Assembly (NCBI GenBank): GCA_027459825.1
Contig: DAIDGT010000001.1
Span: 37,884 to 101,883 of the forward strand
Direction: 5' to 3'
Length of the DNA stretch: 64,000 nt
Origin: a bacterium
Lineage (GTDB): Bacteria; Patescibacteriota; Dojkabacteria; JAKAPS01; JAJZLI01
The position numbers and the translations under genes were made by a program. Below, one piece after another: positions 4,897 to 38,934 of the stretch (its first letter is position 1; each line of letters begins with the position of its first letter). The notes beneath the pieces are model-generated. The model had not been told where the DNA came from, did not search any database, and was given only the letters and a program-made list of their open reading frames with translations.

Positions 4897-4934
4897 TTAA
4901 TAAGAGTATATCATAAAAAAAAGCACTAAAACAA

Positions 4935-4962
4935 AAAATTTGTTATTTAGACAACAAATTTT
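4935..4962 (-). other. AU-rich hairpin in the nusA-infB intergenic region (possible attenuator or processing structure)
   Basis: The 10-bp arms AAAATTTGTT and AACAAATTTT (4935-4944, 4953-4962) flank an 8-nt loop. On the minus-strand transcript it is followed by TTGTTTTAGTGCTTTTTTTT, just upstream of the infB ATG. Confidence 0.25.
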
Positions 4963-5013
4963 AACAATCAACTATAAGTAAAAAGGAAATTGTATAAAGA
5001 GTACAATACAAAA

Positions 5014-6060
5014 TTATTCTTCCTCTGAGGAATTGCTTGCCTCTGAGGACACACTATCAGATACAGGTTCTTCCTGACTTTCAACTTCTACATTATCTTC
5101 ATTATTACCTTCAGGAGAATCACCTTCTATATCAATCTTCCACCCTGTAAGTTTCGCTGCAAGCCTAACATTCTGACCATCCTTGCCTATAGCAAGAGAT
5201 AACTGATCAGAAGCAACTATAACTTTTGCAGTTTTCTCATCCTCATCTAATGTAATCTCTAAAGGTTTTGCAGGAGATAAAGCATTACGAATATACTTCT
5301 GAATATCTTCATCATACTGAATAATATCAATTTTTTCAGACCCAAGTTCATTGGTCATTGCAACTATCCTCATACCTCTTTGACCTACACATGCACCGAT
5401 AGGGTCAATGCCAGCAACATCAGATGTTACAGAAACCTTAGTTCTAGCTCCTGCCTCACGAGCAATATCTTTTATAACGACAGTACCATTTGCTACCTCA
5501 GGAATTTCATTTTCAAATAGAGCTTTAATAACCAAATCTGAAGATCTAGACACAACAATCCTTTTCTGACCAAAAGGAGTCTCTGTAAATTCTTTTAAAT
5601 AAACTTTAATTTTCATTCCAGGCCTATACATTTCTCCATATATCTGTTCTGATGGAGGAAGGATTGCTGCAAGTTTACCTATCTCAACAATAACATTCTG
5701 GCCATCAAACCTTTGAACAACACCCATCTCTAAAGTTCCCATCTTCTTTTCAAATTGAGCCATAACAGAATCCCTTTCAGCCTCAGTAACCTTTTGTAAA
5801 ATTACTTGCTTTGCTGTTTGAGATGCAATTCTACCAAATTCCCTAGGGGTCTTCTCCTCCTTTCCATCAATAAAAATAGAAAATGAACCATTATCATCGT
5901 TAATCTTTGCAGTAATTTCTGCATCTTTATCTGGATCAAAATCCCTCCTGTATGCAGCAACAATTGCCTCAGAAACAGCACCTAATACTTCTTCAGCATC
6001 AATACCTCTCTCGGAAGCAATTTGTCTTATAGCAAGCAAAAAATCTGATTGAACAGCCAT
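5014..6060 (-). CDS. nusA: transcription termination/antitermination factor NusA
   Basis: NusA N-terminal domain, S1 and tandem KH domains, with an acidic C-terminal tail. The nusA-infB arrangement is conserved. Confidence 0.9.
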   Translation of the reverse strand: MAVQSDFLLAIRQIASERGIDAEEVLGAVSEAIVAAYRRDFDPDKDAEITAKINDDNGSFSIFIDGKEEKTPREFGRIASQTAKQVILQKVTEAERDSVMAQFEKKMGTLEMGVVQRFDGQNVIVEIGKLAAILPPSEQIYGEMYRPGMKIKVYLKEFTETPFGQKRIVVSRSSDLVIKALFENEIPEVANGTVVIKDIAREAGARTKVSVTSDVAGIDPIGACVGQRGMRIVAMTNELGSEKIDIIQYDEDIQKYIRNALSPAKPLEITLDEDEKTAKVIVASDQLSLAIGKDGQNVRLAAKLTGWKIDIEGDSPEGNNEDNVEVESQEEPVSDSVSSEASNSSEEE

Positions 6061-6165
6061 AGTTTTAGTATATTAATTAATGCAAGAAGTATATCATATA
6101 AAGAAAGAAATTAGAAATTGGAATACTCCTTGAAAAGTAGTGTTAATAAAATATAATAAAGAGAT

Positions 6166-6804
6166 ATGAGAAAAAATAAATTTCTATCCCAGACAAGACA
6201 AATCATTTTTGGAATGCAGGATGGACTTATATCTATTTTGGTATTAACAACAACTCTATCATCTGTAGCAGAAAGTAATTATTTAATAATAGTTGCGGCA
6301 ATTTCTGCCGCATTAGGAGGGGCAGTATCTATGGCAGCGGGAATGTATCTTGGATCAAAATCTCAAAAAGAGATAAATGTAAAGCAGGAAAGAGAAATAC
6401 AAAATCAAAAGGATGTAGAAAAAATACTAGAAAATGAAGGTGTCTCTTATAAGGATGCAAATTTAATCTCAAAAGAAATGAAACATTACGATAATAATTC
6501 TAAAAAATTTTTACTTTCAAGACTAACTGGAGAGAATATAACAATATCCTCTCCTATTGAAGACAGTATTTTCATAGGAATTTCATTTATACTTGGTGCA
6601 ATAATTCCGGTAATTCCATATTTTATTTTTATAAAAGGAGAAGATGTTATATTCTCAATACTACTAACAGCAATAACCTTAATTTTTATAGGCATAACAA
6701 AAGCAAACTTTGCAGGAAAGTCTAAAACACAGAGCGCATTTGAAATGCTAGTTATAGGGGCTATTGCAGGAATTTTAGGATTTATATTAGGAAAGATAGT
6801 ATGA
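6166..6804 (+). CDS. VIT1/CCC1-family membrane protein (putative Fe/Mn transporter)
   Basis: An FGMQDGLISIL motif resembling the VIT-family GxxDGxxS signature, plus multiple hydrophobic helices. Confidence 0.5.
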   Translation: MRKNKFLSQTRQIIFGMQDGLISILVLTTTLSSVAESNYLIIVAAISAALGGAVSMAAGMYLGSKSQKEINVKQEREIQNQKDVEKILENEGVSYKDANLISKEMKHYDNNSKKFLLSRLTGENITISSPIEDSIFIGISFILGAIIPVIPYFIFIKGEDVIFSILLTAITLIFIGITKANFAGKSKTQSAFEMLVIGAIAGILGFILGKIV

Positions 6805-7829
6805 CAGAAGATATACAAAAATTACAAGATAAATTAAAAGATTTAGATATTCCTGAAGATTTAAAAGAAAAACTGGATCTTTTAGTTGCAAGACTAGAAA
6901 GGATGTCTAAATTTGAAAATTATTCATCAGAATACGAAACTTTGTCAAGATACATTAATGTTATATCAACATATCCATGGAACAAATATTCTGAAGATAA
7001 TCTAGACTTGGAACACGCAAAATCAGTTTTGGATAAAAACCACTTCGGGATCAATAACGTAAAAGAAAGAGTATTAGAATATCTAGCAATAATGAATTTA
7101 AACATAGATCAGGCTGCGCCAATAATATGTTTTGTAGGTCTTCAAGGAATAGGAAAAACAACAATGTCAAAATCTATAGCTGAGGCTCTAGGTAGAAAAT
7201 TTGTAAGAATATCTCTAGGTGGAATGGCATCAGTGCTAGAGATTCGAGGACAATCAAAAGTAAACCCTGACGCAGAAGAAGGATATATCATAAAATCAAT
7301 AACAAGAGCAGGAACATCCAATCCTGTTATACTACTAGATGAAGTTGATAAAATTTCAGATGAAGCAAATTTAAGATCGGGTATTTTCGCGGCATTACTT
7401 GAAATATTGGATCCTGAACAAAATACTTCTTTCCTTGACCATTACCTTGATTTCCCTGTAAATTTATCAAAAGCCATGTTCATCCTCACTGCAAATAATC
7501 TTGGTACTATCTCGTCAGCATTGCTTGACAGATTAGAAATAATAAGGTTCAGCTCTTATACAGATGAAGAAAAAATGACAATTGCAAAAGAATATTTACT
7601 TCCTAAGGTATATAAAGAAACAGGGTTAACAGAGAATACATTTAAAATTAATGTAGATGTATGGAATAATATAATAAGACCACTAGGTTATGAAGCAGGA
7701 ATCAGGGAACTAGAAAGAACAATAATGGCAATTGCAAGAAAGGTTGCAAAACAAATACTATTAAAGGAAACCTCCCAGGTGATCATAACAAATGAAAATC
7801 TAAAAATATATCTACCAGAAAGATATTAA
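6801..7829 (+). CDS. Lon-like AAA+ ATPase module without a protease domain
   Basis: Collinear with the LonA pre-AAA and AAA+ region: VKERVLEYLA, Walker A GLQGIGKTT, Walker B ILLDEVDK, LEILDPEQN...DHYLD, LLDRLEII. The ORF ends after the AAA+ lid. Flanking genes overlap or abut it, so no Lon N-domain or S16 protease domain is present. Confidence 0.7.
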   Translation: MTEDIQKLQDKLKDLDIPEDLKEKLDLLVARLERMSKFENYSSEYETLSRYINVISTYPWNKYSEDNLDLEHAKSVLDKNHFGINNVKERVLEYLAIMNLNIDQAAPIICFVGLQGIGKTTMSKSIAEALGRKFVRISLGGMASVLEIRGQSKVNPDAEEGYIIKSITRAGTSNPVILLDEVDKISDEANLRSGIFAALLEILDPEQNTSFLDHYLDFPVNLSKAMFILTANNLGTISSALLDRLEIIRFSSYTDEEKMTIAKEYLLPKVYKETGLTENTFKINVDVWNNIIRPLGYEAGIRELERTIMAIARKVAKQILLKETSQVIITNENLKIYLPERY

Positions 7830-11151: not shown

Positions 11152-11901
11152 ATGGCACGATACATGTATGTCAAAAAAGGTATCAGTATAAATAAAAAAA
11201 TACCTATTAAGTTAAAAGAAACTCAAAGGGTGAATTACAAAAAAATTAAATTCCATCCTAATTATGGATCAATATTTTTAGTAGTTGTAGGAATTATTAC
11301 CATAACAATAGCATTATCTCCAGAAATCAAATATGTTATAAATAATGTTGTTTTCCATAAATATAAAAATGTAATAGTCAAAGCAGATCCTTCTGCCTCA
11401 TATTTTGAAAAAATTATTAATGCACAACATTCTCAAAATGCAGCAGAGTATAATGGAACTTTTCAAATATCAATTCCTGCAATATCACTGTCCAATATTC
11501 CTGTTAAAGCAAATGTAGATGGGTTTAATACACAGGCTTACGAGACAGTGCTAACTAGTTCACTAGCCCAAATGAAAGGAACAGCACTACCTGGAGAAGT
11601 AGGTAATGTGTACATATATGGACATAGTGCCCCACAATGGTTTGCAGATTTGTACCCAAGTTCCTTCCTTGGAATATTTACAAATATATTAAAACTACAA
11701 AATGGACAATTAATATATATAAAATATAAAGGCATAGTATATAAATATTCAATAGTACAAGAAAGTGTTATTTCACCTACTGATATATCAGTACTTGAGT
11801 CTCCTCCAGGTAAAAAGTATTTGACACTTATGACATGCATACCTCCAGGAATAGGAACACAAAGGTATATAATAAAAGCTATACAAATTTCAGCATCTTA
11901 A
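11152..11901 (+). CDS. sortase-family transpeptidase
   Basis: N-terminal membrane anchor, catalytic His in IYGHSAP, the TLXTC motif (YLTLMTCIPPG) and a conserved Arg in RYIIKA. Confidence 0.75.
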   Translation: MARYMYVKKGISINKKIPIKLKETQRVNYKKIKFHPNYGSIFLVVVGIITITIALSPEIKYVINNVVFHKYKNVIVKADPSASYFEKIINAQHSQNAAEYNGTFQISIPAISLSNIPVKANVDGFNTQAYETVLTSSLAQMKGTALPGEVGNVYIYGHSAPQWFADLYPSSFLGIFTNILKLQNGQLIYIKYKGIVYKYSIVQESVISPTDISVLESPPGKKYLTLMTCIPPGIGTQRYIIKAIQISAS

Positions 11902-13520
11902 ATAAATAATTTTTTCTCAAATTCAAAGGCAAAATGCTTAATACGGGTATGTATGTCGTTATACAACATCAGTGATGAACCTATAGGCAAATTAGTTAAA
12001 ATTCTTAATTCTTCAGATGAAAGTGATAATGCATGAGATAGTTTTTCAAAATTTATCTTATCCTGTTTTAATAAAATTTTTAGAGAGGTATTAGCAATAA
12101 TAGATCTACCTTTATCAGTATCAATAACATCACCAATATCTTGAGTAATATAACAAAACCCCATACTGTACTTCCTTGCTCTTTTCGTTAGAGACTTCAA
12201 ATTGTTTAAAAGTTCAGAATTATCAAATAACCTATGAGCCTCATCTATAAAGACCTGTCTTTTCACAGAAAAGTCCTTTAACTTCCAAAGATAATTTAAA
12301 ATTACATACATCATTAATGGAATATTATCATCAGTTAAATCAGAAATATCAAAGACAATTAAATTATCTCTTTTATTTATATCAATATTAGTTTTCTTAG
12401 AATACAAATGTGACAGAGAACCCTTAGCAATTGGGAAAATTTCATCAGCCATAATGCTTTTAAAATCTTTTAAAATGTTGTATAAGTCAAAAAAAGTGGG
12501 AAAATTTACTTCTCTGAAAAGTTTCAATAAGGCTTTATCTAAGATATTTTTATCAAACCTAGTGCAATACTTTTTTAAAAAACCTTCTATAAAAGATATT
12601 TTATCTTCAATACTTTCATCTTGGGATAAGTCCAATGGATTAATGGTATAGTTATTATTACCTTTAAATTTGCTAGAAAACTTTACTAACTTTCCATCCA
12701 AAGACTTACAAAGCTTCACATATTCACCTTCAGGATCAATAACAATTACCTTGATACCTTTTGATATCATTCTCACAATAGTAGCTTTTGCAAGAAAACT
12801 CTTACCAGCCCCAGATTTTGCAAAAATTACACTATTATAATTTTCAAGCTTAAAAATATCTAAAATACATAAAGCCTTCGACAAAACATTTTCTCCATAT
12901 AATATTCCATCATAGTCACATCGATTACCTACAGACAAAAAATTTAAAGCCGACAGTGATTGAGATTCATATACCATACCAGGATATTTAGAATATGTAG
13001 CAAGGGGAAGAGAATAAAGAAAACCTTCTACATGGTTTAGATCCAATTGATGTACAGTAAATCCTTTTGACTCTGCAAGCATTTGAATATTATTAGATAG
13101 TACATTTAATTTACTTAAATTACGATTAAATAAGGTTATGTATGATGCCATTAAAAAACCTTTAGAATTTCCAGAAATCAATGAATATGAAAAATCTTCT
13201 AATTTTGCAATTTCCATATCCAAAGAGGAATCCCTCAATCTTCCCTTTGAAAAGTCAGAGTGACGCTTAGCACTCAACGCAGCAATTCTATTTTTAATAG
13301 CAATTAGAACAGAAGGCTTCTCCAAAGGCGTAATCATTTGAGAGCATAATACATTACCACCTGAAAATACAAAATCCAAAAGACAAAACGGAATTACTTC
13401 TGATGGAAAATCATAAAATATAAGAGTTATGTAATATACGTCATTTATTTTTACAAACTTATATTTTTCTATAATACTTAATGGGAATATTTTAGTAATA
13501 TTTTGTTTAATATTTATCAT
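11898..13520 (-). CDS. VirB4/TraC-like type IV secretion ATPase, ATPase half (copy A)
   Basis: Walker A FAKSGAGKSFLAK, VIVIDPEGEY, Walker B VFIDEAHRLF, ARKYSMGFCYITQD. It is a paralog of 17389..19401, and its start overlaps the upstream ORF by ATGA. Confidence 0.7.
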   Translation of the reverse strand: MINIKQNITKIFPLSIIEKYKFVKINDVYYITLIFYDFPSEVIPFCLLDFVFSGGNVLCSQMITPLEKPSVLIAIKNRIAALSAKRHSDFSKGRLRDSSLDMEIAKLEDFSYSLISGNSKGFLMASYITLFNRNLSKLNVLSNNIQMLAESKGFTVHQLDLNHVEGFLYSLPLATYSKYPGMVYESQSLSALNFLSVGNRCDYDGILYGENVLSKALCILDIFKLENYNSVIFAKSGAGKSFLAKATIVRMISKGIKVIVIDPEGEYVKLCKSLDGKLVKFSSKFKGNNNYTINPLDLSQDESIEDKISFIEGFLKKYCTRFDKNILDKALLKLFREVNFPTFFDLYNILKDFKSIMADEIFPIAKGSLSHLYSKKTNIDINKRDNLIVFDISDLTDDNIPLMMYVILNYLWKLKDFSVKRQVFIDEAHRLFDNSELLNNLKSLTKRARKYSMGFCYITQDIGDVIDTDKGRSIIANTSLKILLKQDKINFEKLSHALSLSSEELRILTNLPIGSSLMLYNDIHTRIKHFAFEFEKKLFI

Positions 13521-14092
13521 ATATTTAAATAAATGGATGAAAAAACCATTTCTATTTCATCATAGTTATTAATAAATTTATGATCAAATCCAAAGTGAAT
13601 AAAAAGATATTCCAACTGAGTGTCATAACTTGTAACTAATTTTTTAATACCTAAAAATTCATTAGAAAAAATTAAGGATTTTCTTTTACTCTCAAATATA
13701 TAACTTACAAAGTACCTTTGTTCATAAATTTCTGAAAATAATGAAGTTGCCTTTATTTCACTTTCATACAGTAATTTCAGTTTTTCATTTTCTATATTTC
13801 TAACATATTTAAGAACACTATCTTTAGAGGTTATTAAATTACAAACAGATAATTTTATTTGCAAATTAAGACCTAAAAGGAACTCTTCATACTTTTTTAT
13901 GAAATTTTCTTTCAGTGAATCTTCTAAAAACGATACATCTGTAGGAAATACTTCCACTAATCTTGCATAAAAAGAATTTTTTAAAATTACAATACCATCT
14001 TTAATTCCAATAATAGGAAGAAAGCTACTTGTACTCTTCATAAGGGATACTAATGTAATACAATATAAATGAAAATTTTCTTTCTCTAACAA
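13517..14092 (-). CDS. VirB4 N-terminal-domain-like protein (split from ATPase half, copy A)
   Basis: PIIGIKDGIVILKNSFYARLVEVFPTDVSFLEDSLKE matches the CagE/TrbE/VirB4 N-terminal pattern. It is a paralog of 19398..20084 and translationally coupled to the ATPase ORF. Confidence 0.5.
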   Translation of the reverse strand: MLEKENFHLYCITLVSLMKSTSSFLPIIGIKDGIVILKNSFYARLVEVFPTDVSFLEDSLKENFIKKYEEFLLGLNLQIKLSVCNLITSKDSVLKYVRNIENEKLKLLYESEIKATSLFSEIYEQRYFVSYIFESKRKSLIFSNEFLGIKKLVTSYDTQLEYLFIHFGFDHKFINNYDEIEMVFSSIYLNI

Positions 14093-14336
14093 AGAATTTC
14101 ACAAAATCAAAAAACCAAATAATAATAATTCTCCCCTTAACTTGTTGCTTAAATAAAAAATACAGGGAGACAAGAGTGAGTGAAAGTAAAAATACCTTGA
14201 CTTTTAGATTTATATGAATAAAGAGAATCAAAATGATATTAAACACGATAGATAAAACAATCCAGTAAAAATCATATGATAAGATAACATAATTATTCTT
14301 CAAACTCTTAAATTTTAATACTTTAACTTTTTTCAT
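14025..14336 (-). CDS. small two-helix membrane protein, VirB3/PrgI-like by position
   Basis: 103 aa with two hydrophobic segments, immediately upstream of the VirB4 module. Confidence 0.3.
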   Translation of the reverse strand: MKKVKVLKFKSLKNNYVILSYDFYWIVLSIVFNIILILFIHINLKVKVFLLSLTLVSLYFLFKQQVKGRIIIIWFFDFVKFFVRERKFSFILYYISIPYEEYK

Positions 14337-15336
14337 TATGCTCTAAAAATTTTTGTATTGTACTATATATGTTCCATCTTAAACGATCAGATAAATTTTG
14401 TACTGGAGTATGTAGACTTCCACTAAAAATAAAAGGTATCAAAGATAAGGCATATAAAGTTATGATACCTAATAGAAACTGGGGAATTCCTGTTATAGAG
14501 GTACTATTTACAATCAAAACAAATATGGAAATTCCTATAAGAAATGCAGGTTGGATAAATAAAAGTTCTATGATTTTTAATGTTATAGATCTAAACATTC
14601 CCTGAAAGATAGGAAATAAAGAAAAGATTATAAATATTGGAAATAATAATATTAAAATCCAAAGCAATATAAATCTCACAATAAATTCTAAGGAAAAAAT
14701 AAATAATGCCAAAATTAAGGCAATATATAAAATAACCTTTATAACATTTTCAAATAAACCAAATATAGAAAATTGGGTAAAGTGACCTAATATAAGAGTA
14801 AACAAATTTCCAGAAGATACACCTATTAAATTTGTGATGATAAATTTATCTAAAACATTAACAAAGGTTATTAGGTAAGATAGAATATATGGAGAAAGTA
14901 AAATTAAAAAAATAGCAAAAATAGTGTTAACTAATAAATCATGCATAGATACACCACTCCGACCAACAGATGCTTCACCAATGTACAGCATAATACATAT
15001 AAAAAGAAATACAGGTACTAATGAGATAGCAATATATTCTGTACCATCCTTATACTCCTTATATGCAATACCACCAAATTTTGTATTTGGATCTGACCTA
15101 CTATTCAAGATATTGGGAGTAAATTCTACAAACTGATTTATAGTAAATCCAAATGAACAGAGTATGTTTTGAATTGAATAAAGTATATTATTTTGATTGC
15201 AATTTGTACTAAAATTAGTACCATTGCTTTCCTTAGCATAAACAGGAGAAGATACAAAGTACAATATTGCAAAAATTGTAATAATACTAACTAGGAATAA
15301 GCGCATGCAAAAAATGACTAAAATTTTGAGCACCAA
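14323..15336 (-). CDS. polytopic membrane protein, VirB6/TrbL-like
   Basis: Signal peptide, an extracytoplasmic segment, then about 5-6 TM helices. Positioned between the VirB2-like and VirB4 genes. Confidence 0.4.
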   Translation of the reverse strand: MVLKILVIFCMRLFLVSIITIFAILYFVSSPVYAKESNGTNFSTNCNQNNILYSIQNILCSFGFTINQFVEFTPNILNSRSDPNTKFGGIAYKEYKDGTEYIAISLVPVFLFICIMLYIGEASVGRSGVSMHDLLVNTIFAIFLILLSPYILSYLITFVNVLDKFIITNLIGVSSGNLFTLILGHFTQFSIFGLFENVIKVILYIALILALFIFSLEFIVRFILLWILILLFPIFIIFSLFPIFQGMFRSITLKIIELLFIQPAFLIGISIFVLIVNSTSITGIPQFLLGIITLYALSLIPFIFSGSLHTPVQNLSDRLRWNIYSTIQKFLEHNEKS

Positions 15337-15550
15337 ATATTATAAAAAGTCCCACTAATACCCATATGATTTTAGTTCCAAGCCTAGATCTTTCCTGAGG
15401 GTTATTAGAATACATAATAAATTGTATCCCAAGAAATATAACAATAAGTACTAGGACTGATTGAACAATAGTTATAATTACAGAAGTAATATTACCAACA
15501 AATTGTGACAAATTTGGTACTTGCTCCATACTGGGTACAATATTAAACAA
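15287..15550 (-). CDS. VirB2/TrbC-like pilin (small protein with two hydrophobic helices)
   Basis: 87 aa. Hydrophobic helix 1 (VIITIVQSVLVLIVIFLGIQFIM), a short polar loop, then helix 2 (IIWVLVGLFIIFGAQNF). It is the first gene of the minus-strand operon. Confidence 0.4.
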   Translation of the reverse strand: MFNIVPSMEQVPNLSQFVGNITSVIITIVQSVLVLIVIFLGIQFIMYSNNPQERSRLGTKIIWVLVGLFIIFGAQNFSHFLHALIPS

Positions 15551-15567
15551 GTATCAAAAGTAATGCA

Positions 15568-15583
15568 TTGCCATGCATGGCAA
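15568..15583. promoter_or_regulatory. perfect 16-bp palindrome TTGCCATGCATGGCAA in the divergent promoter region
   Basis: Read directly from the sequence. It lies between the divergently transcribed VirB2-like gene (minus) and the AbiEi gene (plus). Confidence 0.4.
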
Positions 15584-15600
15584 ATTTATTTATAAAATAC

Positions 15601-15629
15601 TTGACAAAAACATAATTTTATTCTAGAAT
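15601..15629 (+). promoter_or_regulatory. sigma70-like promoter TTGACA-N17-TAGAAT upstream of the AbiEi gene
   Basis: Consensus -35 hexamer at 15601-15606 and -10 TAGAAT at 15624-15629 with a 17-nt spacer. The ATG is at 15639. Confidence 0.45.
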
Positions 15630-15648
15630 TACCAATATATGATTGGTA
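15630..15648 (+). promoter_or_regulatory. inverted repeat TACCAATATATGATTGGTA overlapping the AbiEi start codon (candidate autoregulatory operator)
   Basis: A 7-bp arm TACCAAT and its reverse complement ATTGGTA, separated by 5 nt, immediately after the -10 element. Confidence 0.4.
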
Positions 15649-16286
15649 TATGTGGAATAAAATCAATGGAAAAACTGGAGAATCTACCATATTTCAACAA
15701 GCATTCCTCTAAGGAGTTAATCGGGAAAACTGGCAGGAACCTTGATGCAAAGATACTTCAACTTACAAAAAAAGGATATTTCGTTCCACTAAAAAATGGG
15801 GTATATACATCTTCTGTATTTTATAATTTACAAGATAACAAGGGAGGGTATCTGGAATTCCTATCAAACGTATTAAGATACCCCTCATATATTTCATTGG
15901 AATACGTATTATATCTAAACGGAGCAATACCGGATGCAGTTCAGTCAATTACTGCAGTATCAATAAAAACTCCACGGGTATACAAGAATAAATTAGGGAT
16001 CTTTATATATAGAAATATAAAAGAAGACCTTTTTACAGGATTTACAATCAATAAAACAGGGACATTCAATATAAAGACAGCAACAAAAAGCAAAGCATTA
16101 TTTGATTATCTATACCTAAAAAGAGATATTTCACAAAATTTGAAATATGAAATAGAAGAAGGAATGCGAATAAATTGGGATATATTCTCAAAAAAGGACT
16201 TAATAGAATTTTATACTTATTGCAAAATTGCAAATTCAAACAAGATGAATAAAATTTATAAGATAATGCAAAGCATCATCATATGA
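15639..16286 (+). CDS. AbiEi-like antitoxin / transcriptional regulator (type IV TA)
   Basis: 215-aa ORF translationally coupled (ATGA overlap) to a clear AbiEii toxin gene. Size and position match AbiEi, but no direct motif was recognised. Confidence 0.5.
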   Translation: MIGICGIKSMEKLENLPYFNKHSSKELIGKTGRNLDAKILQLTKKGYFVPLKNGVYTSSVFYNLQDNKGGYLEFLSNVLRYPSYISLEYVLYLNGAIPDAVQSITAVSIKTPRVYKNKLGIFIYRNIKEDLFTGFTINKTGTFNIKTATKSKALFDYLYLKRDISQNLKYEIEEGMRINWDIFSKKDLIEFYTYCKIANSNKMNKIYKIMQSIII

Positions 16287-17329
16287 TATTGGAAAACTTG
16301 AAACAAATAGTAGACAAAAATAAAAATATAGAATCTCCCTTATATCTTAGAAATTTATTAAAAGAAAGTTTACAGTTGTATGTACTTAACTACATTTACA
16401 CTTCAAAATATGGAAGTAATTTTCTATTTACAGGAGGAACCTGCTTGAGAATATGCTTTGATCTTCCCAGATTATCAGAAGACTTAGACTTTGATTTAAT
16501 AGACATAACACAATTCAATGTGTATGAATTTGAAAAAGATATACAAGATTACTTTAGAAAGACTCTTCAATATAAAGATATTACAACCAAGATTTCTAAG
16601 GGGGAGAGAACAATGTTCCTAAAATTCCCTATATTAGAAAAATTAGGAGTAAACAATAATCCTGCAGAGACTAATATTTTATTCCTGAGAATAGATATTA
16701 CTCCTATGGCTTCAACGGTATACACAAAAGAATTGTCTATAAAGAGCACCCATGATTTTAGTTTTCTAATAAATAGATACTCTCTAAAAGATTTATTCGC
16801 TTCAAAAATTGCAGCAATTATAAGAAGAGTGTTTGTAAAAGGAAAAAGAGATACTCCTTTTAAGGCAAGAGATTACTTTGACCTCATATGGTTTATGGAA
16901 AAGAGGATATACCCAGACTACCAAAGAATAGGGGATCTTCTTAAAATATATTCAAAAGATGAAATTCTACAATTATTAAATAATAAAGTTGAAAATATAA
17001 ATATATCCCACTTAAAGGAGGATTTATCTCCATTTATAAAAGACCAGGAATTTGCATCAAATTTTGCAGAAAAATATAAAGCGCTTTACTCAACCCTAAC
17101 CACTACAAGGATAGATTATTCCAAAGTGGATGCACTTAGCCACACCCCTGTATACCTAGAACTTGAGGATTTAAGTAGAAAATATCCGCAATATGAAAAA
17201 ATATTTTCCAAAGCTTTGCATGAAGAAGCTGTCCCTAATATAAAAGTAATGATGCAGATATTATTAAAAAATGCTAAGGGGCTTGGAGATAAAGAATTAT
17301 TAAATGACCTCCAGGAAATTAGAATGTAG
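16283..17329 (+). CDS. AbiEii/AbiGii-family nucleotidyltransferase toxin (DUF1814)
   Basis: FLFTGGTCLRICFDLPRLSEDLDFDL matches the hallmark GGTAL...RxSEDxDF motif of AbiEii nucleotidyltransferases. Confidence 0.8.
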   Translation: MILENLKQIVDKNKNIESPLYLRNLLKESLQLYVLNYIYTSKYGSNFLFTGGTCLRICFDLPRLSEDLDFDLIDITQFNVYEFEKDIQDYFRKTLQYKDITTKISKGERTMFLKFPILEKLGVNNNPAETNILFLRIDITPMASTVYTKELSIKSTHDFSFLINRYSLKDLFASKIAAIIRRVFVKGKRDTPFKARDYFDLIWFMEKRIYPDYQRIGDLLKIYSKDEILQLLNNKVENINISHLKEDLSPFIKDQEFASNFAEKYKALYSTLTTTRIDYSKVDALSHTPVYLELEDLSRKYPQYEKIFSKALHEEAVPNIKVMMQILLKNAKGLGDKELLNDLQEIRM

Positions 17330-17388
17330 ATAAATCCATTTCACAATATACCCATTACATGGGGTGTTTAGGAAATAGACTCAATAAT

Positions 17389-19401
17389 TCAAGAAACTAT
17401 GTCTTGAGAATTAGATTGTACATTATTATTATCTTCTGGATTAGTCTGAGTATCATTATTACCAATTACTCCCTCAGTAGAATTGCCATTTGTAACAGTA
17501 TTAGGAACAATACGATCTAAAGATGATGCTTCAGGATTTTCTCTCATTTTTAAAATTTCTTCAGGATTTGTTGTTATTAGTTTATGTTCATATTCACTAG
17601 ATAAGACCTGTATAGCGACATGATTTGCTCCAACAAAGAATATTCCTTCTCCAATCTCAGCAGAGAGTAGTAAACTCTTTTCTCCTTCTGATAAGAAAAA
17701 GACTTCAGATAGACGATCTATTGCAGAAGGAGATTGCCTTAACAGAATTTGTATAGAAGAGTTTGTTACTACAGCTTTTCCATAATCATTTGAAAGAAAG
17801 TCATCTACATCTTGAGACACAGTAGTAAGACCTAAGTAATATTTTCTTGCTCTTTTTGCAACGGCATACACAAACTGAGCACTATCAGGATATTGCATCA
17901 GAATCCATGCTTCATCAATGATAAAAATTCTCTTTCTAAGATCTTTTTTTACTCTAGTCCAGATAAAATCGAGCATTAAAAACATAGCAATTGGCCTTAG
18001 TTCATCTGAAAGATCCCTTATACTAAAAACAGTAAAATCATTATCAAGATTTACTGTTGTATGGGTATCAAATATACCAGAAGCAGAACCTTTAATATAT
18101 TTTTCAAGCCTTGTAGCCAATTCATGAGCTTCGGGCTCCTCCATGGATTGTAAAACTTTGTACAAATCCTCCATTAGAGGAGGATCCTTTACCTGGGTAT
18201 CAGGATCAAAAGTAATCCCTTTATCTCTATAAGTTAATATCAAAGCTTTATCTAGAATAGCATCCTCTATACTAGAAAGCCCACCTTCATTTCCAAGCAT
18301 TACCTTAAAGAGACCATGTAAGGAAAGTATCTTAAACCTAAGTTCATCTTCTCCTTCCTCATAAACTCCAGATAAGTCAAAAGGATTTATTTTATCCCTA
18401 CCATCCTGTGTAAATGAAATATATAGTCCATTTAAAGCCTTACATAAAGTTTCATATTCATTTTCAGGATCAATAATTATAATCTGAGTACCAAGCATCA
18501 AAGATCTCAAAGCTTCTAGCTTTACAAGATAACTTTTACCTGAACCAGATTTAGCGAAAACAACCGAGTTTGCATTCTCTAGATCAAATCTGTCAAACAC
18601 TACTAAACTCTTATTAGCTTTATTAATACCATAAAGCACGCCTCTATCAGAAGTAAGCTCAGAGGAAACAAAAGGGAATGTAGTTGCTATGGAAGTAGTA
18701 TCCATGTTATGGGTATAGTAAAGTTTATCATACCCTTCGGGGAGAGTTGATTGAAAACCACCTTCCATCTGTAAAGTTGTTGGCTTAATTATAAGGGACA
18801 TTGCACCTAAAGTTGATTCTAGATTTTTTGATATGTCATCCAACTCTTCTAATGTATCTGCCCTAACAGTTACATATAATGCAAAATGGAAGTATCGCTC
18901 AGCTCCTTTAGCTAGATTATCCTGTAAATTTTTAGCATCTTCTAAAGTAACTTTAATTGTAGGATCCAATACCCTGCCAGACTCAATCATAGTATTAGTT
19001 GTAGCTTCAAGCTCTGCAATCTTTTTTCTAAGTTGTCCTAATACCTCTTTAGCATCAATAGGATAATAAAACATACTAATATCGATAGAATGCTCAAACG
19101 TAATTAATGGAGATAACCAATTTGGAGTTACATACCGAGGATATGCGAGAGCAAAATATGTTCTAAAAAATTTATCTCCAATTTTAATGTTAGAAAAATC
19201 GACTTCGATAGAAGGAGGAGCAATAATATCCTTTATTGAATTTATTCCCATTCCAAACACTTCAAAAGCAGAATTAGTATTAGAAGTTGTTCCCTGTTCT
19301 GATCCCGTAGACTTAGAAGGTACTGAATTAGAATTTTCAACACCACTATCACTTGAGCTAACATTTTTATTAGATTGTCTAGAAAAAAACGGGATCTTCA
19401 T
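17389..19401 (-). CDS. VirB4/TraC-like type IV secretion ATPase, ATPase half (copy B)
   Basis: Walker A FAKSGSGKSYLVK, IIIIDPENEY, Walker B IFIIDEAWILM, ARKYYLGLTTVSQD. It has an S/N/T-rich low-complexity N-terminal insertion and overlaps the upstream ORF by ATGA. Confidence 0.75.
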   Translation of the reverse strand: MKIPFFSRQSNKNVSSSDSGVENSNSVPSKSTGSEQGTTSNTNSAFEVFGMGINSIKDIIAPPSIEVDFSNIKIGDKFFRTYFALAYPRYVTPNWLSPLITFEHSIDISMFYYPIDAKEVLGQLRKKIAELEATTNTMIESGRVLDPTIKVTLEDAKNLQDNLAKGAERYFHFALYVTVRADTLEELDDISKNLESTLGAMSLIIKPTTLQMEGGFQSTLPEGYDKLYYTHNMDTTSIATTFPFVSSELTSDRGVLYGINKANKSLVVFDRFDLENANSVVFAKSGSGKSYLVKLEALRSLMLGTQIIIIDPENEYETLCKALNGLYISFTQDGRDKINPFDLSGVYEEGEDELRFKILSLHGLFKVMLGNEGGLSSIEDAILDKALILTYRDKGITFDPDTQVKDPPLMEDLYKVLQSMEEPEAHELATRLEKYIKGSASGIFDTHTTVNLDNDFTVFSIRDLSDELRPIAMFLMLDFIWTRVKKDLRKRIFIIDEAWILMQYPDSAQFVYAVAKRARKYYLGLTTVSQDVDDFLSNDYGKAVVTNSSIQILLRQSPSAIDRLSEVFFLSEGEKSLLLSAEIGEGIFFVGANHVAIQVLSSEYEHKLITTNPEEILKMRENPEASSLDRIVPNTVTNGNSTEGVIGNNDTQTNPEDNNNVQSNSQDIVS

Positions 19402-20084
19402 ATAGGTTTCATCTGCATAGTAGAAGATACTAAAGGAGCAGTATACTGATTAAAATCTCCCCTTAGTTTATCATTCATAGGATTATATATATTATAAAAC
19501 AATTTAATTAAATCTGCAGTAGTAAGTTGTTTTGACTTTAACCCCATCCTTGATAGCTGCCTTATAATGTGATCTCTACGGGGAAAGAGTTTTGACTTAG
19601 ACTGCTCAATAATTTTGTCAATGTTAGTTAACTTTACTTCTTTTCCAAACATTTGTTTTGTAAAAGAAGGTTTTTGGGTAGACCATGAAAAAGAGGGGAC
19701 AACTATATAAAAATGTTTATCAAGAACATTGTTCTTCACAATTAAATCTTTAACAAACTTTCTGTATATGTCTATTTGATACTTCACCTTTGGATCTTTT
19801 TGTTTTTCCCTAAAGTCATCCAAATACTTAAGATATTTAGAAATATCAATGTTCTCAGTATGAACTAAAACTTGTATATAAAAACCCAAAGAATTCAAAA
19901 GTCCCGCAAATGCATAAATTTTAGATTCTTGCTCAATCTCAGATAAAAGATAGAAGTTAACTGCAGACGTCTCAACCACAAGACAAACATTTCCATTTTT
20001 TAAAACAAGTAAATCATCTTTTATTTCCTCTATATCTAAATGAGCCTGAGTTGTTGCAATAATTGGTGTTTTTTTACTATCCAT
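19398..20084 (-). CDS. VirB4 N-terminal-domain-like protein (copy B)
   Basis: LDIEEIKDDLLVLKNGNVCLVVETSAVNFYLLSEIEQE matches the VirB4/TraC N-terminal pattern. Paralog of 13517..14092. Confidence 0.5.
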   Translation of the reverse strand: MDSKKTPIIATTQAHLDIEEIKDDLLVLKNGNVCLVVETSAVNFYLLSEIEQESKIYAFAGLLNSLGFYIQVLVHTENIDISKYLKYLDDFREKQKDPKVKYQIDIYRKFVKDLIVKNNVLDKHFYIVVPSFSWSTQKPSFTKQMFGKEVKLTNIDKIIEQSKSKLFPRRDHIIRQLSRMGLKSKQLTTADLIKLFYNIYNPMNDKLRGDFNQYTAPLVSSTMQMKPI

Positions 20085-20095
20085 AAAATATTATA

Positions 20096-21601
20096 TTACA
20101 AATTATTATTCTCCTGCATAACAGGGATAAATATAAAAGGTATAACAAGAGACCCTGTCAACTCTATACCCACAGAGTTAAACTTATATCCCTGAGCATT
20201 AATTTCTATATTATACCTACCATTCAAAAGTGCTGTTCTCGTATAAAACTGCCCCAATTGATTAGATTTTACAGCTCTTATAGGTTTTTGATTTGAATCT
20301 TTTATTATCACAACGGCATCAGAAATCAAAGTACCATCAGAATTTACAATAACTCCCGAAATAACATTAGGGGTCTTTACAAAATCTGGAAGTTTAGAAA
20401 TTAATGCTTGCTGATCAAATGTACCCTGCTGAGAAGAAACTCGTGTCTTAACTTTTTCAATATTACTCTGCAAAGTATCTTCAGGTATTTTTTTTGCACT
20501 TATCTCATTTTTTAATTCAGAATTTTCCATCTCAAGCTGTTTAATTCTTTCCATTATTTTAGAAAGTTCACTATCTCTCGAGGACGGAGTATTCCCTAAG
20601 GAAGATTGATTAGAATTACTATCTTGCTCATTAATAGTATTATTAGAGGAATTAACCACAGAATCATTACTAACACTATTATTATTTTCAATAATATCAC
20701 TATCAACTTTAATATCAGAAATATTACTTTGTGGAATAGTAGATTGAGAAGACACATTAGAACTATCAGTATGATTAACATTTTCTTCAGCAGGATAAGT
20801 AGAAATATTACCTACATCATCAGATTTACTCGCATCATATACAACATTACTATCACTATTTACGTTATTGTAAGGTATAGATTCCTGCAGATTAGCATCA
20901 GGATTCTTATCATTAGTATGATTTTCTCCAATTTCTCTTTTTTCATCAACAGAACCATCATCACTATTATTACTACCAACTAAATTTTGGGGAGTACTCG
21001 GTCTCGGGACAGAAGAAATATAAGGTGAAGAGTTATTGTTTGATACTGGGGAGGAAGGAGAAGTTGACAATATTGAATTAGTATCAATTTTTTCATTTGT
21101 AAGCAATTTATTAATTTTATCTATATTTGCATTGAGCATATTTTCTTTTAATTCTAATGCGCTATCAACGTTAGATGCATTATTTTTTATAGTAGTATCA
21201 AAAGGATTTTGGTAAAAAAATGTTGCAATTTCCTTATTAGAAGGAGAAACTGTAGGGGACTTAGGAATATCAAGTACAGAAGGAATGGTTGATGATTCCC
21301 TCATCCATATCCTTTGAGTGGGTTTCTTAATAGTAATTAAAAAATTGGTAATCCATTCATCAAGAGGCCTATCATCAATTGGGATAAAAGCAATCAGTAC
21401 ACCCAAAAGTAAAAAAATACCTGTAAGGGGAATTGTAATATAATTACTAACATGGGCAATAAACATTATAAATCCTATACAAGCAGGAATAGCAATAAAG
21501 GCAAATTGCTTCATAGACATATCCCCAATTATCTTGAATTCAACACTCATTATATTTTGAGGAACTGAATGCTGCTTTTCTTTCATAATCAATATAAACA
21601 T
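20096..21601 (-). CDS. PrgI/VirB3-like membrane protein with Ser/Asn-rich low-complexity linker, coiled coil and C-terminal beta-sandwich-like domain
   Basis: Two N-terminal TM helices, then about 200 aa of S/N/D-rich low complexity, a coiled coil (LEMENSELKNE) and a C-terminal region resembling a carboxypeptidase-regulatory-like fold (SGVIVNSDGTLISDAVVIIKD...GRYNIEINAQGY). Confidence 0.35.
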   Translation of the reverse strand: MFILIMKEKQHSVPQNIMSVEFKIIGDMSMKQFAFIAIPACIGFIMFIAHVSNYITIPLTGIFLLLGVLIAFIPIDDRPLDEWITNFLITIKKPTQRIWMRESSTIPSVLDIPKSPTVSPSNKEIATFFYQNPFDTTIKNNASNVDSALELKENMLNANIDKINKLLTNEKIDTNSILSTSPSSPVSNNNSSPYISSVPRPSTPQNLVGSNNSDDGSVDEKREIGENHTNDKNPDANLQESIPYNNVNSDSNVVYDASKSDDVGNISTYPAEENVNHTDSSNVSSQSTIPQSNISDIKVDSDIIENNNSVSNDSVVNSSNNTINEQDSNSNQSSLGNTPSSRDSELSKIMERIKQLEMENSELKNEISAKKIPEDTLQSNIEKVKTRVSSQQGTFDQQALISKLPDFVKTPNVISGVIVNSDGTLISDAVVIIKDSNQKPIRAVKSNQLGQFYTRTALLNGRYNIEINAQGYKFNSVGIELTGSLVIPFIFIPVMQENNNL

Positions 21602-26247: not shown

Positions 26248-27078
26248 ATGAACATAATAAATGATATCATACTCAGTTTAACTCAAGGAATATCTGAGCT
26301 TTTCCCAATTAGTAGCTTGGGGCACAGTATCATTATTCAATCATTCCTAAATATACATGTTACAAAAAACTCAGCATTTTTCCTTCCATTTATAGTTTCA
26401 CTACACGTAGGTACAGCATTGGCATTAATAATCTATTTTTTTAAAGAATGGAAAAATATAGTTATATCACTAGTAAAAACTGCGATATCAGGAAAATTAT
26501 CTAATGATAAAACAGAAAATTTTGCATGGAAACTAGTAATAGCAACAGTTCCTGTTGGTGTAGTTGGTTTACTATTTAAAAATTTTGTTGCACAAATTTT
26601 TAAATCACCACAAATTGCGGCAATATTTATAATAATCAATGGATTCATACTATATATTGGTGAAATTCTAATAAGGAGAAAAAATATCACGAAAAGAAAA
26701 TTAGAAGATATATCATTTTTTGACGCCATCATCATAGGGGCATCGCAAATACTAGCATTAATACCAGGAATATCTAGATCAGGAGCAAGTATGGTAGCAG
26801 GGCTTTTATATAAATTAGACCATGAAGATGCGGCATATTTTTCATTCATGCTAGCAACCCCAGTAATTCTTGCGGCAGGAGTACTCGAGATACCTACCCT
26901 TTTTACAATACATTATGCGCAAGCATTCATGTATGCAACAATCGGAGCAGTTATATCTGGTATTGCTGCATATTTTGCAGTAAAGTTTTTAATGAAATAC
27001 TTCAAAACAGGAACACTAAAACCATATGCTTACTACTGCATTGCCGCAGGAGTACTAGCACTTATAATATTAAGATAA
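26248..27078 (+). CDS. uppP: undecaprenyl-diphosphatase
   Basis: GISELFPISSLGH and ISRSGASM motifs of the BacA/UppP family. Confidence 0.9.
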   Translation: MNIINDIILSLTQGISELFPISSLGHSIIIQSFLNIHVTKNSAFFLPFIVSLHVGTALALIIYFFKEWKNIVISLVKTAISGKLSNDKTENFAWKLVIATVPVGVVGLLFKNFVAQIFKSPQIAAIFIIINGFILYIGEILIRRKNITKRKLEDISFFDAIIIGASQILALIPGISRSGASMVAGLLYKLDHEDAAYFSFMLATPVILAAGVLEIPTLFTIHYAQAFMYATIGAVISGIAAYFAVKFLMKYFKTGTLKPYAYYCIAAGVLALIILR

Positions 27079-28503
27079 AAGAAATATTATATATGGGACC
27101 TTTAATAAACCATTATCATAACTTATATTAAAATCTTTAGTAATTAATATTTTATTTTCAATTTTTAATTTACCTGACAAACCTTGAAAAAATTTTCTTC
27201 CTTTTATGTCAATACAGACACTGATACCACTAGTAGACTTAAAAATAAAATCAATGTCTTTATCTCTATTTCTATAATACTTACAATCTACAATATTATC
27301 TTTCTGTTTCAAAAAAACATAGAAAAGATTCATTATATATTTATTAAAAAGTTCAGGAGAAGAAAGTATATCTTCTTCCCTAATTTTTAGTATACTATTC
27401 CTCACACCATGATCAATTAAAAAAATTTTAATATTGGAAGCCTTATTTATATTTGAATGATATTTTTCTAACCTTAAAATTAAATTGGAATCTTCTAAAA
27501 CCTTTAGATATTTTTCAATAGTTTCTCTATGTACTTTTAATTTCTCTGCTAAAGAAAGAATACTAAACTCATCAGTAAAGTTAATAGCAAGATAAAAGAA
27601 AAGACTAGAAAGAGCATCTGTGTTTTTTATATCTTCAATAAGGTAAATGTCTTCCAACAAAATTTTTTCTATTTGAGTTTGATACAAATATTCATACTGT
27701 AATTTTTCATTTGGCATCATCCATCCTTCAATAAATCCTCCATACAGTAAATATTTATTAAAATACTTAAAAAGCTCATCTTCAAACATTGAAAGTTTTT
27801 TTAAAGTGGACAGAATTGCAGGAATAGAGGTTTCAAATTTAAAATCTCCAAAGATAGATGGTGTTACCATGTGCAAATCAGAAATAGATTTAAGAATACT
27901 CTCCTTCATTCGGATATCAGCACGATCATCAGAAAGCAAGGTAAACGTTAAATATTCTTCGAAACTAAAGGGAAATAATTTAAAATTTTTTATTCTTCCT
28001 GCCAAAGATTCTTTACTTTTTATATTAATAAAAGAAGAATATGATCCAGAAATAATAAATTTGAAATTCATTTTGGAATCATAATATTTTTTGAGAAAAA
28101 GCTCCCAACCATCAAACCTCTGTATTTCGTCAATGAAAATATATTTTTTACCATCACTACCAAAATCTTTTGTGTAATCTATAAAGTTGGAAATTATATC
28201 GTCAAATATAGCAGGTGAGTGTCGTATAGAATATATAAAAGGATCATCCATTGAAATATACATAATATCAAATGGATTAATACCTTCCAGATTTATAAGG
28301 TCTGATACTACCTGCTTAAGTATAGTAGTCTTTCCTACTCTTCTTGGACCAGTTACAGAAATTATCTGATCAATGCTTAGTACAGAGTTAAAAATATCAT
28401 CATAAGAAGATCTCCTGTACACAGGAATTCCTAGAAGAGAATTATTTTTTTTCCACCATGGATTATAAAATTCAATACACTTTCTAAATAAATTGATATC
28501 CAT
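27070..28503 (-). CDS. AAA+ ATPase with DUF4143 domain
   Basis: The N-terminal FYNPWW motif and P-loop GPRRVGKTT are typical of the PF13173/PF13635 family. Confidence 0.7.
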   Translation of the reverse strand: MDINLFRKCIEFYNPWWKKNNSLLGIPVYRRSSYDDIFNSVLSIDQIISVTGPRRVGKTTILKQVVSDLINLEGINPFDIMYISMDDPFIYSIRHSPAIFDDIISNFIDYTKDFGSDGKKYIFIDEIQRFDGWELFLKKYYDSKMNFKFIISGSYSSFINIKSKESLAGRIKNFKLFPFSFEEYLTFTLLSDDRADIRMKESILKSISDLHMVTPSIFGDFKFETSIPAILSTLKKLSMFEDELFKYFNKYLLYGGFIEGWMMPNEKLQYEYLYQTQIEKILLEDIYLIEDIKNTDALSSLFFYLAINFTDEFSILSLAEKLKVHRETIEKYLKVLEDSNLILRLEKYHSNINKASNIKIFLIDHGVRNSILKIREEDILSSPELFNKYIMNLFYVFLKQKDNIVDCKYYRNRDKDIDFIFKSTSGISVCIDIKGRKFFQGLSGKLKIENKILITKDFNISYDNGLLKVPYIIFLLS

Positions 28504-38925: not shown

Positions 38926-38934
38926 TTAGAGGAA

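Follow-up and report, generated by a model that had tools for sequence, protein, structure and literature searches.

What is a two-gene unit on the plus strand doing within a gene cluster, related to type IV secretion systems (T4SSs), that is otherwise coded on the minus strand? This question is raised by a 64,000-nucleotide stretch of contig DAIDGT010000001.1, from a member of the Dojkabacteria (hereafter the window), in which two overlapping open reading frames (ORFs), at 15639-16286 (+, 215 aa) and 16283-17329 (+, 348 aa), both with ATG starts, lie between two T4SS-like modules. An earlier note, made from the sequence alone, had read the pair as an AbiEi/AbiEii abortive-infection toxin-antitoxin (TA) system. 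As set out below, the locus very probably represents an intact AbiE cassette, acquired horizontally and housed in the variable space that separates two conserved chromosomal T4SS-like modules.

The placement described in the earlier note holds, the flanking VirB4/TraG-P-loop ATPases being both coded on the minus strand. No other plus-strand coding unit lies within the T4SS-like cluster (11898-21601); a sortase gene (11152-11901), also on the plus strand, lies at the cluster's edge. Likewise, the translational coupling of abiEi and abiEii that had been proposed is borne out by a 4-nt ATGA stop/start overlap (16283-16286, +). An independent metagenome contains a contig (L111) with the same arrangement, 99.25% identical over 7.5 kb with 0 indels, and the AbiE insertion is therefore not an assembly artefact. 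An exact-sequence look-up of the window AbiEii gave no contig, and one with the cluster member P0123 did give one.

A predicted AbiEii nucleotidyltransferase

The downstream ORF is identified as a predicted abiEii toxin gene by PF08843, by its motifs and by its modelled fold, with a DUF1814 nucleotidyltransferase core that spans approximately residues 1-277. PF08843 matched at 73.4 bits, against a cutoff of 22.5 (E=3.5e-20), aligning residues 38-276 with profile positions 6-227 of 238, as expected from the DUF1814 assignment made in the earlier note. In addition, 24 PADLOC AbiEii models matched the protein (best E=3.7e-35), and an NCBIfam scan of the 348-aa toxin returned no match. Its 1,988 homologues come mainly from bacteria of the Patescibacteria/candidate phyla radiation (CPR), and the close ones already carry the NCBI annotation AbiEii/AbiGii toxin family protein. 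Together with the best PADLOC match of the upstream ORF (E=6.7e-41), these profile matches place the two predicted proteins in the AbiEii and AbiEi families far beyond chance.

The Pol-beta nucleotidyltransferases are defined by a motif I, hG[G/S], and a motif II, DhD, in the arrangement hG[G/S]x15DhD (PMC3985639). In the 348-aa protein these correspond to F49-T-G51-G52 and D67-L-D69, both of which align with JHP933 and MenT4, and the sequence FTGGTCLRICFDLPRLSEDLDFDL comprises residues 49-72; the family's motif III (a Lys among hydrophobic residues, plus an Arg) is provided by K175 and R182, and its motif IV (+DxxD) by R196-D197-Y-F-D200. Alignments of 37 and 46 homologues show no variation at G51, S65, D67, D69, K175, R196, D197 or D200, and at least 90% conservation of G52, R63 and R182. 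The GG...S-E-D-x-D signature from which the toxin had been recognised thus aligns across these homologues, with invariant residues, and with the DUF1814 proteins of the PDB as well. The residues found by mutagenesis to be essential in Streptococcus agalactiae AbiEii (G49, R63, D67, D69, K173, R180 and D192; PMC3985639) have one-to-one equivalents here in G51, R63, D67, D69, K175, R182 and D197. Furthermore, S65, within R63-L-S65-E-D67, is placed by the S/T-x-D-x-D pattern at the position of the phosphoacceptors T65 of S. agalactiae AbiEii and S78 of MenT3 (bioRxiv 10.64898/2026.01.19.700257; PMC11375011), and is as such their predicted equivalent and a putative phosphoacceptor.

Structural comparisons were made at the level of profiles and models. 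A profile of the toxin family matched the Helicobacter pylori protein JHP933 (4OK0/4O8S, 8e-8) across motifs I-IV, and 6Y56 at 5e-3; phmmer searches of the PDB with the single toxin or antitoxin sequence retrieved no AbiE-family or DUF1814 chain. The AlphaFold2 (AF2) model of the toxin (pLDDT 89.4, pTM 0.80) was compared with the PDB using Foldseek, and MenT3/TglT and JHP933 made up the whole of the top 12 matches (prob 1.00, E=2e-5 to 3e-4), with target-normalised TM-scores of 0.42-0.53. All the sequence and structure features that could be tested here were found, and the 348-aa ORF is, as judged from sequence and model, a DUF1814/AbiEii nucleotidyltransferase.

A predicted AbiEi antitoxin

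The upstream 215-aa ORF is predicted by PADLOC and by fold to encode an AbiEi antitoxin and autorepressor, with a winged helix-turn-helix (HTH) at the N-terminus and an antitoxicity domain at the C-terminus. Eight PADLOC AbiEi models matched it, PDLC02241 best. Its AF2 model (pLDDT 94.3, pTM 0.88) has the two-domain AbiEi fold seen in 6Y8Q and 1ZEL, and its best PDB matches were chains A and D of 6Y8Q, the S. agalactiae AbiEi (E=8.6e-5, prob 1.0, 208 aligned columns), followed by 8AN5 (MenA1/MenT1, prob 0.85) and 1ZEL (Rv2827c, prob 0.90). A profile of the AbiEi family had no match in the PDB, and no Pfam domain was found in any of the 120 listed antitoxin homologues. These homologues keep the N-terminus MIxIxGIK, and the block P82-S83-Y84-x-S86-L87-E88-Y89 is conserved at the boundary between the two domains. 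In characterised antitoxins, a loop required for toxin binding and phosphorylation comprises D85/E86/I87 of AbiEi and D102/V103/N104 of MenA3.

The pairing of the two genes is itself conserved. In every locus fetched, an AbiEi homologue lies immediately upstream of the PF08843 gene, with an overlap of 4 or 11 nt and with different surrounding genes each time; this holds for L002, L083-L089 and 20 further loci, and the protein look-up alone found the pair in five unrelated contexts. PADLOC hidden Markov models (HMMs), fold and gene-pair conservation together support the assignment of the 215-aa ORF as a predicted AbiEi antitoxin, and the upstream gene does not appear to belong to an unrelated family, since it matches AbiEi profiles and an AbiEi crystal structure.

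A conserved promoter and a putative operator

A sigma-70-type promoter, TTGACA-17 nt-TAGAAT, is predicted at 15601-15629 (+), with 11/12 consensus matches. Its -10 box ends 9 nt ahead of the abiEi ATG, and no Shine-Dalgarno sequence is present. The layout -35/17 nt/-10/9 nt/ATGATT is kept in 25 cassettes from unrelated contexts (the window, the loci from the protein look-up and those from a pattern scan, in which the conserved promoter is followed by AbiEi), among which the AbiEi proteins are only 44-58% identical. Because of the 9-nt spacing, the missing Shine-Dalgarno sequence, the lack of any alternative downstream abiEi start codon in the homologous loci outside the window and the conserved MIxIxGIK, the abiEi mRNA is probably leaderless or has a leader of 1-3 nt, with a predicted transcription start site (TSS) at 15636-15639.

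The -10 box, the predicted +1 and codons 2-9 lie under a dyad (15615-15663) whose 22-nt arms (15615-15636 and 15642-15663), separated by 5 nt, are complementary at 18/22 positions. In register, the arms pair at 72% of positions over 21 unique loci, versus 25-41% at shifts of 1-4 nt, and two double-compensatory changes were seen. In the window alone the dyad is marginally above chance, 9/500 shuffles reaching its score. The outer half-sites TTTTATTCC/GGAATAAAA carry most weight, because the pattern used in the metagenome search fixed some of the inner positions. The dyad is a candidate AbiEi operator, by analogy with S. agalactiae, in which the operator is a pair of 23-bp inverted repeats that are spaced by 3 bp and overlie the transcription start (PMC7319586). 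In the L111 strain, three adjacent substitutions (15624-15626) turn the -10 hexamer from TAGAAT into CGTAAT, a change that probably weakens the abiE promoter, and complementarity of the dyad is still 18/22.

The cassette occupies a variable gap

The cassette, consisting of promoter, abiEi and abiEii, is 1,745 bp long (15590-17334, +). This extent follows from a comparison with the relative L003, whose DNA homology with the window (83-86%) ends at 15589 and restarts at 17335; moreover, in 25 homologous cassettes similarity starts at the -35 box and vanishes directly upstream. Eight genomes have a VirB4 that matches the window's 670-aa protein (VirB4_670) at 76-91% identity, and the common gene order is T2SSE, SBP, NTP-transferase, a first module (PrgI-like, h228, VirB4_670), a gap, a second module (VirB2-like pilin, polytopic membrane protein, h191, VirB4_540), sortase and DnaJ. 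The gap is the only variable part of this order. In the window it measures 1.84 kb and holds AbiE antisense to the T4SS genes. In L003 it holds (4409-6252) a different AbiE pair of approximately 35% identity, co-directional with the T4SS genes and with a 422-aa toxin, between flanking proteins that are 86-98% identical to those of the window. L006 has a third AbiE subtype, in which the antitoxin measures 197 aa and the toxin 224 aa (PDLC02255 and PDLC02324 being the best PADLOC models), together with a secreted protein of about 382 aa (11995-13143); a secreted protein of about this size is also present in L005 (12187-13338). L004 carries a 563-aa secreted protein and a 336-aa HTH-phosphoribosyltransferase with weak PsyrT/ShosT-like PADLOC matches (12017-14951), and L008 carries proteins of 101 aa and 996 aa with no family matches (12105-15403). 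The comparison of relatives suggested in the earlier note thus gave a mixed answer: in L009 the modules adjoin with no insert, whereas L003 and L006 hold other AbiE pairs and L004, L005 and L008 other cargo. In L007 and L076 the second T4SS module is wholly missing.

The site is small, accommodating a single cassette of 0.6-3.7 kb. No integrase or transposase was found among the annotated neighbours of the cassette, and no flanking repeats were seen at its junctions, nor a compositional anomaly over it. tRNA and Rfam scans of the whole window were empty, and there is therefore no tRNA-type integration site. No relatives of the cassette were found in phage genomes or on IMG/VR viral contigs, and the homologues of AbiEii on plasmids are distant only (25-31%).

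The backbone around the gap has features of its own. A perfect 16-bp palindrome, TTGCCATGCATGGCAA (15568-15583), lies upstream of the VirB2-like pilin gene and, because it is conserved in L003 and in the insert-free L009, belongs to the backbone and lies outside the cassette; it might terminate module 1 or act as an operator for module 2. At the other end, between the convergent stops of abiEii and VirB4_670, a backbone hairpin, CCCATTACATGGG (17351-17363), is conserved in L003 and is a weak candidate for a bidirectional terminator. The backbone sequence CCCATGTAATGGGTATATTGTGAAATGGA is common to the window (17335-17363) and L003 (4380-4410). In L003 it gives the likely GTG start of that genome's own abiEi; its place in the window is downstream of abiEii and on the opposite strand, which hints that the window cassette replaced an L003-type cassette.

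Two related loci differ in detail from the window cassette. Downstream of a related cassette in L087 (4490-5801) come small ORFs and another PF08843 ORF, short at 210 aa, possibly a tandem or decayed second toxin. In L002, an inverted repeat (2766-2809; 20-nt arms, 19/20 complementary) lies 54-97 nt upstream of the abiEi start, just beyond the conserved promoter of the cassette; it is perhaps the neighbouring gene's terminator, or else belongs to the junction.

A subclade-specific toxin tail that varies between strains

Beyond its nucleotidyltransferase core, the toxin has a C-terminal helical tail of 70 aa (approximately residues 278-348; 17114-17326, +), for which the AF2 model predicts five helices (pLDDT 59-88). 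Most of the 1,988 homologues lack the tail, being about 277 aa long and covering 77% of the query; it is confined to the window's own subclade (P0002-P0005, L001, L002 and L085). It is unrelated to the tail of the L003 toxin, and a Pfam scan found no family for either tail. The possibility that the tail exists as a separate downstream ORF in cassettes with short toxins was considered and rejected, as only long-toxin relatives match.

The tail holds most of the strain-level amino-acid variation of the toxin. Between the window and L111, abiEii has 0 substitutions in the catalytic core (codons 36-266), and 7 nonsynonymous and 1 synonymous in codons 267-341; abiEi has 4 synonymous and 2 nonsynonymous changes. 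Over four strain alleles, 8/82 sites vary in the tail versus 2/266 elsewhere (Fisher p=2e-4), and the nonsynonymous to synonymous ratio is 7:1 in the tail versus 13:28 across the rest of the 7.5 kb (p=0.005), a comparison that amounts to two haplotypes, in which diversifying selection, relaxed selection and a single recombination event are not separable.

T4SS-like surroundings

The two T4SS-like modules occupy 11898-15550 and 17389-21601, and their VirB4 paralogues are only about 30% identical. The last gene of module 1, convergent with abiEii, encodes the 670-aa VirB4-like ATPase (17389-19401, -; PF19044 5.7e-26, PF03135 CagE_TrbE_VirB). Module 2 consists of the VirB2-like pilin gene, a polytopic protein (14323-15336), h103, h191 and VirB4_540. 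Its first gene, divergent from abiEi, encodes a VirB2/T4SS-pilin-like protein (15287-15550, -; PF18895 30.2 bits, cutoff 26.6; PF04956 29.4 bits, cutoff 27.9), and VirB4_540 is a VirB4/TraG-P-loop ATPase (11898-13520, -; PF19044 1.7e-19). A survey of Patescibacteria found 2,474 VirB4 homologues in 2,417 genomes (PMC12102498), and two VirB4 copies per genome appear to be uncommon in this group. VirB4_670 has a low-complexity C-terminal tail (17389-17500) and is 670 aa long here versus 805-871 aa in relatives (L009 9120-11537, L007 10001-12616, L076 9872-12382); in insert-free genomes this tail fills the space held here by the AbiE cassette.

Elsewhere in the window, the ORFs at 6166-6804 and 6801-7829, which also overlap by 4 nt and resemble an AbiE pair in size, were considered as a second AbiE pair and rejected, as they encode a VIT1-family transporter (212 aa) and an AAA+/Lon-lid ATPase (342 aa). 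An AAA_14/DUF4143 ATPase is encoded at 27070-28503; genes of the same family, apparently fragmented, occur in L087 (1192-2438), adjoining the related AbiE cassette and a PIN/MazE pair. Finally, two adjacent giant paralogues (34735-43206; 1,396 and 1,423 aa) contain DUF2341, LamG-like and purple-acid-phosphatase-N domains and are probably surface or pilus-associated proteins; after them come a MacB-like ABC ATPase-permease fusion and a fusion of PilM and PilN.

Proposed mechanism and alternative explanations

By analogy with S. agalactiae AbiE and Mycobacterium tuberculosis MenAT, the AbiEii nucleotidyltransferase would add nucleotides to the 3'-CCA end of tRNA, leading to translation and growth arrest. 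AbiEi's C-terminal domain would bind the toxin and induce auto-phosphorylation of S65 in the S-E-D-L-D loop, switching the enzyme off, a type VII logic that was historically called type IV. Its winged HTH would bind the dyad over the -10 box and +1, repressing its own, probably leaderless, bicistronic mRNA. If expression or antitoxin action were disturbed, as by phage infection or loss of the cassette, active toxin would stop the cell, and this release could both provide abortive-infection defence and make the cassette hard to lose.

Several observations weigh against this reading. A Pfam scan of the 215-aa antitoxin gave no AbiEi match at E<=1, so that the AbiEi_4 hit looked for on the strength of the earlier note did not materialise, and its NCBIfam TAA_AbiEi score of 24.9 bits is below the cutoff of 150; what supports the assignment is therefore the PADLOC HMMs, the fold and the conserved gene pairing. 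Conservation of the dyad could in part reflect the -10 box and coding constraint, and characterised AbiEii proteins have no counterpart of the 70-aa tail. Toxicity, neutralisation, tRNA modification and phage protection are assigned to this locus by homology only, and nucleotide and tRNA specificity varies among homologues and is not predictable for the window toxin. In addition, family membership is no guarantee of defence, since in tests with 32 coliphages S. agalactiae AbiE was not protective (bioRxiv 2026 preprint).

The earlier note had also suggested that the pair might stabilise the T4SS locus and so point to a mobile origin. AbiE would then be an addiction module maintaining a mobile integrative/conjugative element (ICE) that comprises both VirB4 modules, as for ICESa2603-family elements. 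AbiE does stabilise plasmids and ICEs in streptococci (PMC3985639, PMC11062541), and the pair lies within a T4SS-like cluster; however, in eight relatives, AbiE present or not, the modules keep one housekeeping synteny (T2SSE-SBP-NTP transferase ... sortase-DnaJ), there is no integrase, relaxase or coupling protein among the cluster's annotated neighbours, and patescibacterial T4SSs are reported to be chromosomal, vertically inherited and mostly relaxase-free (PMC12102498). Furthermore, AbiE was found near 0/78 other CPR VirB4 loci, using a narrow profile that could miss distant DUF1814 proteins. We therefore regard an addiction role for a mobile T4SS as improbable, and a mobile origin of the locus is disfavoured. 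From the lack of AbiE at these 78 loci, the absence of relatives on phage and viral contigs and the absence of an integrase, we conclude that the association between AbiE and T4SS is a lineage-specific hotspot and not a functional link. Anti-phage defence, or a selfish TA cassette, fits better than T4SS stabilisation.

It is very unlikely that AbiEi has been co-opted as a regulator of module 2, whose expression it would modulate by binding and bending its operator DNA, 50-110 bp away from the divergent VirB2-like pilin gene. The two genes are indeed divergent with 88 bp between them, AbiEi homologues bend promoter DNA (PMC7319586), and an AbiEi influences nodulation and stress phenotypes in Mesorhizobium (PMC8436566), but the candidate operator lies wholly within the cassette, L003, in which AbiE is reversed, and the insert-free L009 share with the window the backbone upstream of the pilin gene, and a fixed regulatory role is hard to square with an arrangement that changes from relative to relative. 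It is harder still to credit that the pair is a decaying or silent remnant, non-functional and kept by drift. The altered -10 hexamer of the conspecific strain and the nonsynonymous changes gathered in the toxin tail would suit such a remnant; against it, both ORFs are full length with all catalytic residues intact, codons 36-266 of abiEii are unchanged between strains and synonymous changes outnumber nonsynonymous ones in abiEi, and the window promoter remains close to consensus. An intact, horizontally acquired cassette remains the preferred reading. One might go further and propose that the gap is a dedicated site that exchanges promoter-bearing AbiE subtypes without a recombinase, and that the tail is a trigger-sensing or specificity domain under phage-driven diversifying selection; this is speculative and, on present evidence, doubtful.

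Comparison with known systems

The arrangement resembles that of S. agalactiae AbiE (SAG1284/SAG1285) and Lactococcus lactis pNP40 AbiE, with an antitoxin-first bicistronic operon and a 4-nt overlap (for S. agalactiae, PMC3985639), a DUF1814 toxin carrying motifs I-IV and a Ser/Thr phosphoacceptor two residues before DxD. With S. agalactiae AbiE it further shares a two-domain winged HTH antitoxin, the model of which best matches 6Y8Q, and inverted repeats of approximately 22-23 bp with a 3-5-bp spacer over the promoter and TSS (PMC7319586). Unlike the streptococcal and lactococcal systems, it has no sequence-level match in the PDB, so that kinship to characterised AbiE rests on profiles and fold; its antitoxin is not recognised by Pfam AbiEi models, its toxin bears the extra helical tail, its host belongs to the CPR, and the cassette is chromosomal and not on a plasmid or ICE. 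The S. agalactiae mRNA, moreover, has a 26-nt leader (PMC3985639), in contrast to the short spacing and probably leaderless transcript here.

Among the MenAT systems of M. tuberculosis, structures of MenT3/TglT (Rv1045; 6J7S, 6Y5U and 7C46) are the best matches of the toxin model (prob 1.0), and the S-x-D-x-D loop is equivalent to the S78 phosphoacceptor loop of MenT3. As in the MenT4 system (Rv2826c with Rv2827c), an AbiEi-like antitoxin is involved, Rv2827c (1ZEL) being among the antitoxin fold matches. Sequence identity to MenAT is, however, about 10%; MenA3 and MenA1 differ in architecture, and the window antitoxin is AbiEi-sized and lacks the C-terminal extension of Rv2827c. JHP933 is the closest solved structure by sequence profile and a top fold match, but is shorter (232 aa) and has no C-terminal tail. 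The site itself is like defence-system hotspots between core genes, with sharp junctions flush with conserved flanks and with different systems at the same place in close relatives (three AbiE subtypes, an HTH-phosphoribosyltransferase, uncharacterised proteins, or nothing). It differs from such hotspots in being very small, in having no integrase or mobile-element hallmarks and in lying inside a T4SS-like cluster.

Significance

The direct value of the finding is modest, AbiE being among the most abundant defence and TA families and already catalogued in a set of groundwater bacterial metagenome-assembled genomes (MAGs) to which 3,004 CPR MAGs belong, where it is reported to rank within the top five defence families by prevalence (PMC12259885). 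The new points, a probably leaderless abiEi mRNA and a subclade-specific helical toxin tail, are minor. They nonetheless offer the AbiE/MenAT field compact, testable features, namely a promoter and candidate operator that are strongly conserved, an antitoxin mRNA that is probably leaderless and a toxin whose extra C-terminal tail evolves fast; were the tail to act as a sensor, it would be relevant to how AbiE toxins are triggered, which is an open question. Finally, the locus presents a clean natural case of cassette replacement in a reduced genome, with three AbiE subtypes, other cargo, or nothing at one site among congeneric genomes.

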